This document shows positions 1,774 through 3,673 of a stretch of DNA of 6,341 bases, one piece after another (the first letter of the stretch is position 1; every line of letters starts with the position of its first letter). Location: the IMG/VR virus record IMGVR_UViG_2547132270_000002. One strand, written 5' to 3'. The DNA comes from a virus (lineage: Duplodnaviria; Heunggongvirae; Uroviricota; Caudoviricetes). Under the pieces are notes generated by a model, which was not told the origin of the DNA, did no database searches, and worked only from the letters and a program-made list of their open reading frames with translations. Both the position numbers and the translations under genes were made by a program.

Positions 1774-3673
1774 CAGGCTGCGGCATTTTGTCCGCGCCGG
1801 GCTTCGTGCCCTGTTCAGGCCGGAGCCACAGACCGCCGTTGAATGGGCGGACGCCAGTTACTATCTCCCGAAAGAATCCGCATACCAGGAAGGGCGCTGG
1901 GAAACACTGCCCTTTCAGCGGGCCATCATGAATGCGATGGGCAGTGACTATATCCGCGAGGTGAATGTGGTGAAGTCTGCCCGTGTCGGTTATTCCAAAA
2001 TGCTGCTGGGTGTTTATGCTTATTTCATAGAGCATAAGCAGCGCAACACCCTTATCTGGTTGCCGACGGATGGTGATGCCGAGAACTTTATGAAAACCCA
2101 CGTTGAGCCGACCATCCGCGATATTCCGTCGCTGCTGGCGCTGGCTCCGTGGTATGGCAAAAAGCACCGGGATAACACGCTCACCATGAAGCGTTTCACC
2201 AATGGGCGTGGCTTCTGGTGCCTGGGTGGTAAAGCGGCAAAAAACTACCGTGAAAAATCGGTGGATGTGGCGGGTTATGATGAACTTGCTGCCTTTGATG
2301 AGGATATTGAACAGGAAGGCTCTCCGACATTCCTGGGCGATAAGCGTATTGAAGGCTCTGTCTGGCCAAAGTCCATCCGTGGCTCCACGCCCAAAGTGAG
2401 AGGCTCCTGCCAGATTGAGCGTGCTGCCAGTGAATCCCCGCATTTTATGCGTTTTCATGTTGCCTGCCCGCACTGCGGGGAGGAGCAGTATCTTAAATTT
2501 GGCGACAAAGAGACGCCGTTTGGCCTCAAATGGACGCCGGATGACCCCTCCAGCGTGTTTTATCTCTGCGAGCATAATGCCTGCGTCATCCGCCAGCAGG
2601 AGCTGGACTTTACTGATGCCCGTTATATCTGCGAAAAGACCGGGATCTGGACCCGTGATGGCATTCTCTGGTTTTCGTCATCCGGTGAAGAGATTGAGCC
2701 ACCTGACAGTGTGACCTTTCACATCTGGACAGCGTACAGCCCGTTCACCACCTGGGTGCAGATTGTCAAAGACTGGATGAAAACGAAAGGGGATACGGGA
2801 AAACGTAAAACCTTCGTAAACACCACGCTCGGTGAGACGTGGGAGGCGAAAATTGGCGAACGTCCGGATGCTGAAGTGATGGCAGAGCGGAAAGAGCATT
2901 ATTCAGCGCCCGTTCCTGACCGTGTGGCTTACCTGACCGCCGGTATCGACTCCCAGCTGGACCGCTACGAAATGCGTGTATGGGGATGGGGGCCGGGTGA
3001 GGAAAGCTGGCTGATTGACCGGCAGATTATTATGGGTCGCCACGACGATGAACAGACGCTGCTGCGTGTGGATGAGGCCATCAATAAAACCTATACCCGC
3101 CGGAATGGTGCAGAAATGTCGGTATCCCGTATCTGCTGGGATATTGGTGGTATTGACCCGACAATTGTGTATGAACGCTCGAAAAAGCATGGGCTGTTCC
3201 GGGTGATCCCCATTAAAGGAGCATCCGTCTACGGAAAGCCGGTGGCCAGCATGCCACGTAAGCGAAACAAAAACGGGGTTTATCTTACCGAAATTGGTAC
3301 GGATACCGCGAAAGAGCAGATTTATAACCGCTTTACACTGATGCCGGAAGGGGATGAACCGCTTCCCGGTGCTGTTCACTTCCCGAATAACCCGGATATT
3401 TTTGATCTGACCGAAGCGCAGCAGCTGACTGCTGAAGAGCAGGTCGAAAAATGGGTGGATGGCAGGAAAAAAATACTGTGGGACAGCAAAAAGCGACGCA
3501 ATGAGGCACTCGACTGCTTCGTTTATGCGCTGGCGGCGCTGCGCATCAGTATTTCCCGCTGGCAACTGGATCTCAGTGCATTGCTGGCGAGCCTGCAGGA
3601 AGAGGATAGTGCAGCAACCAACAAGAAAACACTGGCAGATTACGCCAGAGCCTTATCCGGAGAGGATGAATGA
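1748..3673 (+). CDS. A: Terminase large subunit gpA (641 aa)
   Basis: GTG start at 1748 overlapping the nu1 3' end by 26 nt; TGA at 3671-3673. [20 protein letters not shown]... matches lambda gpA as I recall it. Residues Y46 (1883-1885), K84 (1997-1999), D178/E179 (2279-2284) and K497 in GASVYGKP (3236-3238) are present. Confidence 0.98.

Follow-up and report, generated by a model that had tools for sequence, protein, structure and literature searches.

In phage lambda, the anatomy of the cos packaging site, the layout of its sub-sites and the role of cosQ have been described (PMC4856287), and the ATPase motifs of the large terminase subunit gpA have been placed as KSA-R79-VGYS (Walker A) and VAGYD (Walker B) (PMC6379665, Table 1 therein). 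The experimentally established catalytic carboxylate is E179: all 11 substitutions tested were lethal, including E179D, and E179A/Q abolished ATP hydrolysis and translocation, with folding and cos cleavage unaffected (PMC6379665). Lambda has no lysine at the classical Walker A position and carries one N-terminal of that position instead; as of 2022, the structure of lambda gpA was not yet known (PMC9410871). The solved large terminase proteins of T4 (gp17), Sf6 (gp2), P74-26 and HK97 work on the ASCE ATPase principle of gpA as well: Walker A carries an arginine, and the catalytic glutamate lies next to Walker B (PMC6379665, PMC9410871). They are too divergent from the gpA described here for detection by sequence; searches of the PDB with this protein, or with a 12-sequence family profile, found no terminases.

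The stretch of DNA analysed (the window, 6341 bp) is an entire draft contig, AEJY01000192.1 of assembly GCA_000208505.2. It was matched by 414 phage records (megablast), with lambda itself matching 1009-6341 at 97.4% identity. The open reading frames (ORFs) and their comparison with phage lambda (NC_001416) gave the order cos, nu1, A, W, B, C, which identifies the short contig as the left (packaging) end of a lambda-like prophage. We identify positions 1748-3673 as an intact lambda-type large terminase subunit (gpA/TerL) gene inside a normal lambdoid late operon, cos-nu1-A-W-B-C, with a probability of about 0.9 (Table 1).

Table 1. Packaging-site elements, genes, protein domains and key codons in the 6341-bp window
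Feature	Position	Strand	Basis
cosQ (GGGTCCT), packaging-termination element	1009-1015	+	Identical to lambda 48473-48479
cosN, 22-bp nicking site; 12-nt cohesive end GGGCGGCGACCT at 1039-1050	1034-1055	+	Identical to lambda 48499-17
I2 bend and cosB (R3, I1, R2, R1), small-terminase and IHF binding sites	1056-1219	+	Lambda bp 18-81 identical
nu1, small terminase subunit, 181 aa	1228-1773	+	Lambda nu1 length; 8 nt and 1 aa (L132I) differences
A, large terminase subunit gpA/TerL, 641 aa, GTG start	1748-3673	+	Colinear with lambda A
Y46 codon (TAC), ATP-interactive "Q-motif" tyrosine	1883-1885	+	Translation
gpA ATPase (translocation motor) domain, aa 47-285	1886-2602	+	Pfam PF05876 GpA_ATPase, E=4e-50, profile positions 3-237 of 247
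Deviant Walker A K76-SAR79VGYS83, then K84	1973-1999	+	Translation; lambda motif per PMC6379665
Walker B V174-AGYD178 and catalytic carboxylate E179	2267-2284	+	Translation; D178/E179 invariant
gpA endonuclease (cos-cleavage) domain, aa 322-600	2711-3547	+	Pfam PF20454 GpA_nuclease, E=2e-73, profile positions 2-286 of 294
Acidic codons D401; D465; E586	2948-2950; 3140-3142; 3503-3505	+	Translation
G491-ASVYGK497-P498, P-loop-like motif within nuclease domain	3218-3241	+	Translation
W, head-tail adaptor, 68 aa	3670-3876	+	Lambda W length, 2 aa differences; Pfam gpW
B, portal protein, 533 aa	3873-5474	+	Lambda B length, 7 aa differences; Pfam Phage_portal_2
C, S49 prohead protease/scaffold, first 295 codons, cut by contig end	5455-6341	+	Pfam Peptidase_S49

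The terminase gene, its neighbours and the cos site

Gene A translates without frameshift into 641 aa and a stop. It aligns with lambda A (NC_001416, 711-2636) at equal length and without gaps, differing at 50 of 1926 nt (97.4% identity), and 633 of the 641 residues are identical to lambda gpA (NP_040581.1; 98.75%), so that a chance match need not be considered. Because the ORFs are equal in length and the alignment has no gaps, residue numbers are those of lambda throughout. The GTG start and the 30 bases before it are also lambda's, as are the 26-nt overlap of the A start with nu1, the 4-nt overlap of A with W and all mapped functional residues. The eight substitutions are S21A, N37S, D185E, T220S, I459V, T466I, T532M and G621S.

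Relative to lambda (Nei-Gojobori), A carries 41 synonymous and 9 nonsynonymous differences (dS, 0.10; dN, 0.006; dN/dS, 0.06); dN/dS was 0.04 for nu1, 0.17 for W, 0.05 for B and 0.14 for the part of C present. A has evolved under purifying selection. The overlapping nu1 upstream (product matching Pfam Phage_Nu1, E=9e-101) and W and a lambda-family portal gene downstream all have lambda lengths, and the partial C keeps the lambda frame, is free of stops and differs at 7 aa. The gpA product belongs to PHROG 15 (terminase large subunit) and combines PF05876 and PF20454 in one polypeptide of ~640 aa, both far above their gathering scores. Long minus-strand ORFs opposite A and C (1694-2575, 293 aa; 2903-3565, 220 aa; 5641-6270, 209 aa) were considered and taken as noncoding by-products of the plus-strand genes.

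Isolated lambdoid coliphages 2B8, YDC107_1, Turner, PhiR46_1, ev207 and 2H10 encode gpA proteins with 99% identity to that of the window, none of them identical to it. Five of the eight substitutions (S21A, D185E, I459V, T466I and G621S) are shared with isolated phages (2B8, YDC107_1, Turner, PhiR46_1, 2H10, PhiR70_1 and others): S21A is found in 2B8, YDC107_1 and PhiR46_1, D185E and I459V each in 6 of 10 phages, T466I in 4 of 10, and G621S in 2B8 and PhiR70_1.

Several further observations concern the same genes. Positions 2474-2976 of the window (A nt 727-1229) form a run of 503 nt without any difference from lambda, compared with ~1 difference per 28 nt over the rest of A; the odds of such a run are about 1e-4, and it is probably a recent recombination tract, consistent with lambdoid mosaicism. 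In gpC, four of the seven substitutions relative to lambda (S42R, Q55G, L58P and G65V) fall within 24 N-terminal-proximal residues (gpC 42-65; window 5578-5650). The records of YDC107_1 and Turner annotate the large terminase with a shortened N-terminus, its start covered by a small "hypothetical protein"; tblastn gives an unbroken, full-length gpA in both, and the GTG start was probably overlooked in these annotations. Fragments of gpA are resembled by several other PHROG families (4145, 3028, 2022 and others).

Upstream of nu1, no difference from lambda was found in the heptamer of cosQ, the 12-nt cohesive end, I2, R3, R2 or R1; the lambda coordinates of cosQ are presumably those of Wieczorek and Feiss (2001). 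From cosQ to the end of cosB (1009-1219, lambda 48473-182), six substitutions and one 1-nt deletion were found, with A→G at 1111, T→C at 1140 and the deletion (near 1176) lying in cosB. The deletion and a T→C change at 1022 are common to isolated phages Kati and PhiR11_1, and the change at 1111 is shared with Kati alone. None of the three phages compared (lambda, Kati and PhiR11_1) showed the changes at 1020 (G→A), 1029 (A→G), 1034 (T→C) and 1140. Position 1034 (lambda 48498) is the leftmost base of the 22-bp cosN; by our own derivation, T→C makes it rotationally symmetric with lambda bp 17. Similarity to lambda begins exactly at cosQ (1009), and positions 1-1008 are unrelated to lambda's right arm. 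Other lambdoid phages, PhiR70_1 and Kati among them, do carry this upstream 1 kb, which includes an 81-aa ORF (718-963) without a Pfam or PHROG match.

Conservation of ATPase and nuclease residues

A first-pass annotation had listed Y46, K84, D178/E179 and K497 as intact catalytic residues of lambda gpA. Their placement is exact to the base: the interval 1883-3238 given for them runs from the first base of the Y46 codon to the last base of the K497 codon, and alignment with lambda gpA showed neither offset nor substitution at any of them. K84 is encoded by AAA (1997-1999), D178 by GAT (2279-2281), E179 by GAA (2282-2284) and K497 by AAG (3236-3238); VAGYDE and GASVYGKP begin at residues 174 and 491, respectively, and both Walker motifs stand at their lambda positions. 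Also intact, and absent from that list, are K76/R79 and the acidic residues of the nuclease domain.

How far each residue is conserved was read from an alignment of 12 family members (the gpA of the window, lambda gpA and 10 homologues from isolated phages spanning 87% to 28% identity). All 39 invariant columns are kept in the gpA of the window. D178 and E179 are unchanged in 12 of 12 members, down to 28% identity. Position 46 is tyrosine only in relatives with at least 52% identity and H, Q or A in more distant homologues, position 84 is lysine in 8 of the 12 sequences, and position 497 is K, Q, R or A, between the invariant G491 and P498.

The label "catalytic" therefore holds for D178/E179, which are invariant and of which E179 is backed by experiment (PMC6379665), and not for Y46, K84 and K497, none of which is invariant in the 12-member alignment. 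Only D178/E179 are catalytic in a strict, family-wide sense; the other three are best read as lineage-specific, ATP-interactive or auxiliary residues of the lambda-like branch. In lambda gpA, 8-azido-ATP reportedly labels Y46 and K84. Work by Hang and colleagues in 2000 and by Tsay and colleagues in 2009 is said to have given Y46 an ATP-interactive role. Full-text literature searches pairing Y46, K84 or K497 with terminase found no relevant reports.

More distant members of the family (PhiR57_1, 66% identity; Pseudomonas LESphi3, 52%; down to Synechococcus S-CBS3, 28%) have the same two-domain layout and retain D178, E179, D401, E408, D465, D519, E586, D589, G491, P498 and a cysteine cluster, whereas a classical GxxxxGKT Walker A replaces K76...R79 in distant members, which are without Y46, K84 and K497. 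Across the 12 sequences, K76 (with R79) never occurs together with the classical GKT lysine. Between residues 76 and 84, lambda-like members have K76 and Y, W or A at the classical position, and distant members have W or F at 76 and GKT. This distribution agrees with the published remark on lambda's displaced lysine (PMC9410871).

Lying after the ATPase core and before the nuclease domain, the cysteine cluster (C240, C243, C274 and C279; window 2465-2584) has a CxxC...CxxxxC arrangement, in which P241, C243 and C274 do not vary across the family and C240 hardly does. The family profile gave weak, nonsignificant zinc-ribbon matches in the PDB (1qyp, E=0.057; L44e, E=0.26), and the cluster may be a zinc ribbon.

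In the nuclease domain, the acidic residues D401, E408, D465, D519, E586 and D589 are invariant in the 12 homologues, and all are present in the gpA of the window. We take the K497 motif in the same domain to be the "putative Walker A motif" of an earlier review. In the relevant part of that review (PMC2366019, citing Hang et al. [quoted passage not shown]

Extent of the prophage and alternative readings

Only two contigs on record encode exactly this gpA protein: the window and a 22.8-kb contig from an independent assembly, that of SRR024110. The two are 99.97% identical and differ only in the lengths of two A homopolymers outside the terminase genes, at window positions 92 and 854 (2964 and 3725 of the longer contig), which are A6 versus A5 and A7 versus A6. 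As a result, the ORF at 718-963 has 81 aa in the window versus 52 aa in the longer contig, and that at 45-194 has 49 aa versus a 98-aa PHROG 4439 protein. This disagreement shows that at least one assembly contains homopolymer errors, though none within A.

As the window is a single 6.3-kb contig, its evidence of intactness covers the terminase gene and its neighbours and not the prophage as a whole. An intact terminase gene might sit in a defective prophage remnant (one that has lost, for example, its early region, integrase or tail tip), where it would either have ceased to serve its own phage or owe its survival solely to the recency of decay or to use by cos-packaged satellites or other prophages. 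We consider this unlikely, though deserving of real weight. More than half of a lambdoid genome is outside the data: the early region, the integrase and integration genes and the tail-tip genes lie beyond both contigs, the longer of which ends within H. Among 5426 complete E. coli genomes, 3784 carry lambda-like A genes, often as several copies (in up to 7 places per genome) and nearly all at 95 to 99% identity to the A of the window, and many of these prophages must be defective. The best A match among the complete genomes reaches 98.0%; at identities of only 96 to 98%, the closest of these genomes do not hold the same prophage.

Against a defective remnant stand ~22.8 kb of contiguous late genes for lysis, head and tail as far as H, each with an open reading frame of normal length (holin, endolysin and Rz upstream, then nu1, A, W, B, C, D, E, FI, FII, Z, U, V, G, T and H, with C complete at 439 aa), together with low dN/dS in all five window genes and the retained cos sub-sites. 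The product of Z (11881-12414 of the longer contig) has 177 aa compared with 192 aa in the lambda-like PhiR30_1, with a divergent central segment. The 15-aa difference was weighed as a sign of decay and rejected, as isolated phages 2B8 (95% identity) and PhiR12 carry an allele of the same length.

More speculative, and in our estimate very unlikely, is a pair of ideas in which either the cos-nu1-A module is kept in a defective prophage for another user (a cos-type phage-inducible chromosomal island or another resident prophage) or the changes at 1020, 1029 and 1034, together with N37S in gpA, mark a slightly shifted packaging specificity. Neither idea has positive support in the data.

It is highly improbable that one of the three private substitutions (N37S, T220S or T532M) inactivates or weakens the enzyme despite its intact canonical residues. 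All three are missing from the 11 close phage gpA sequences compared, N37S falls in the N-terminal part of gpA that contacts gpNu1, and single conservative changes in gpA can be lethal, as E179D is (PMC6379665), but all lie outside the Walker motifs and the invariant columns. In the deeper family alignment, Ser220 is present in two isolated phages (PhiR57_1 and LESphi3), position 37 varies (N, H or Y), as does position 532 (T, I, D and others), and N→S and T→S are conservative changes.

That the intactness of A is an assembly artefact hiding a real gene with an indel is scarcely credible: the two homopolymer disagreements are typical of pyrosequencing-type errors, but both assemblies yield the identical 641-aa gpA, and errors usually break ORFs and rarely rebuild a frame of 1926 nt in codon-by-codon agreement with lambda.

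Predicted packaging function and significance

Our preferred reading remains an intact terminase gene in a normal late operon. We find gpA very probably functional because it is full length in two assemblies and in lambda register, has a low dN/dS, near-complete Pfam domains and the conserved residues, carries only substitutions that recur in isolated phages or fall at variable positions, and lies beside an intact cos site and intact partner genes (nu1, W and B). The first-pass view of a probably functional, undecayed gene copy is thus borne out, and the gpA of the window is, as far as sequence can tell, probably active. The full-length, selectively constrained ORF in its cos-nu1-A-W-B-C context is better evidence of function than the five residues first listed.

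By analogy with lambda, gpNu1 dimers would bind the R sites of cosB and place gpA on cosN, where the C-terminal nuclease domain (aa ~322-600; D401/D465/E586 and neighbours) would nick twice, in staggered positions, to leave the 12-nt cohesive end. Separation of the ends would depend on ATP and involve the G491-K497 motif. The terminase complex would then dock on the portal gpB, and the N-terminal ASCE ATPase (K76/R79, D178, E179 and the adenine-contacting Y46) would pump DNA into the prohead until the next cosQ/cosN.

The allele is an already known and very common phage gene, and its value is mainly one of annotation. More generally, among the commonly quoted lambda gpA residues, family-wide conservation is limited to the Walker B Asp-Glu pair and the acidic residues of the nuclease domain. 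A working-looking terminase together with its cos site would be useful for predicting the inducibility or transduction potential of the source strain.
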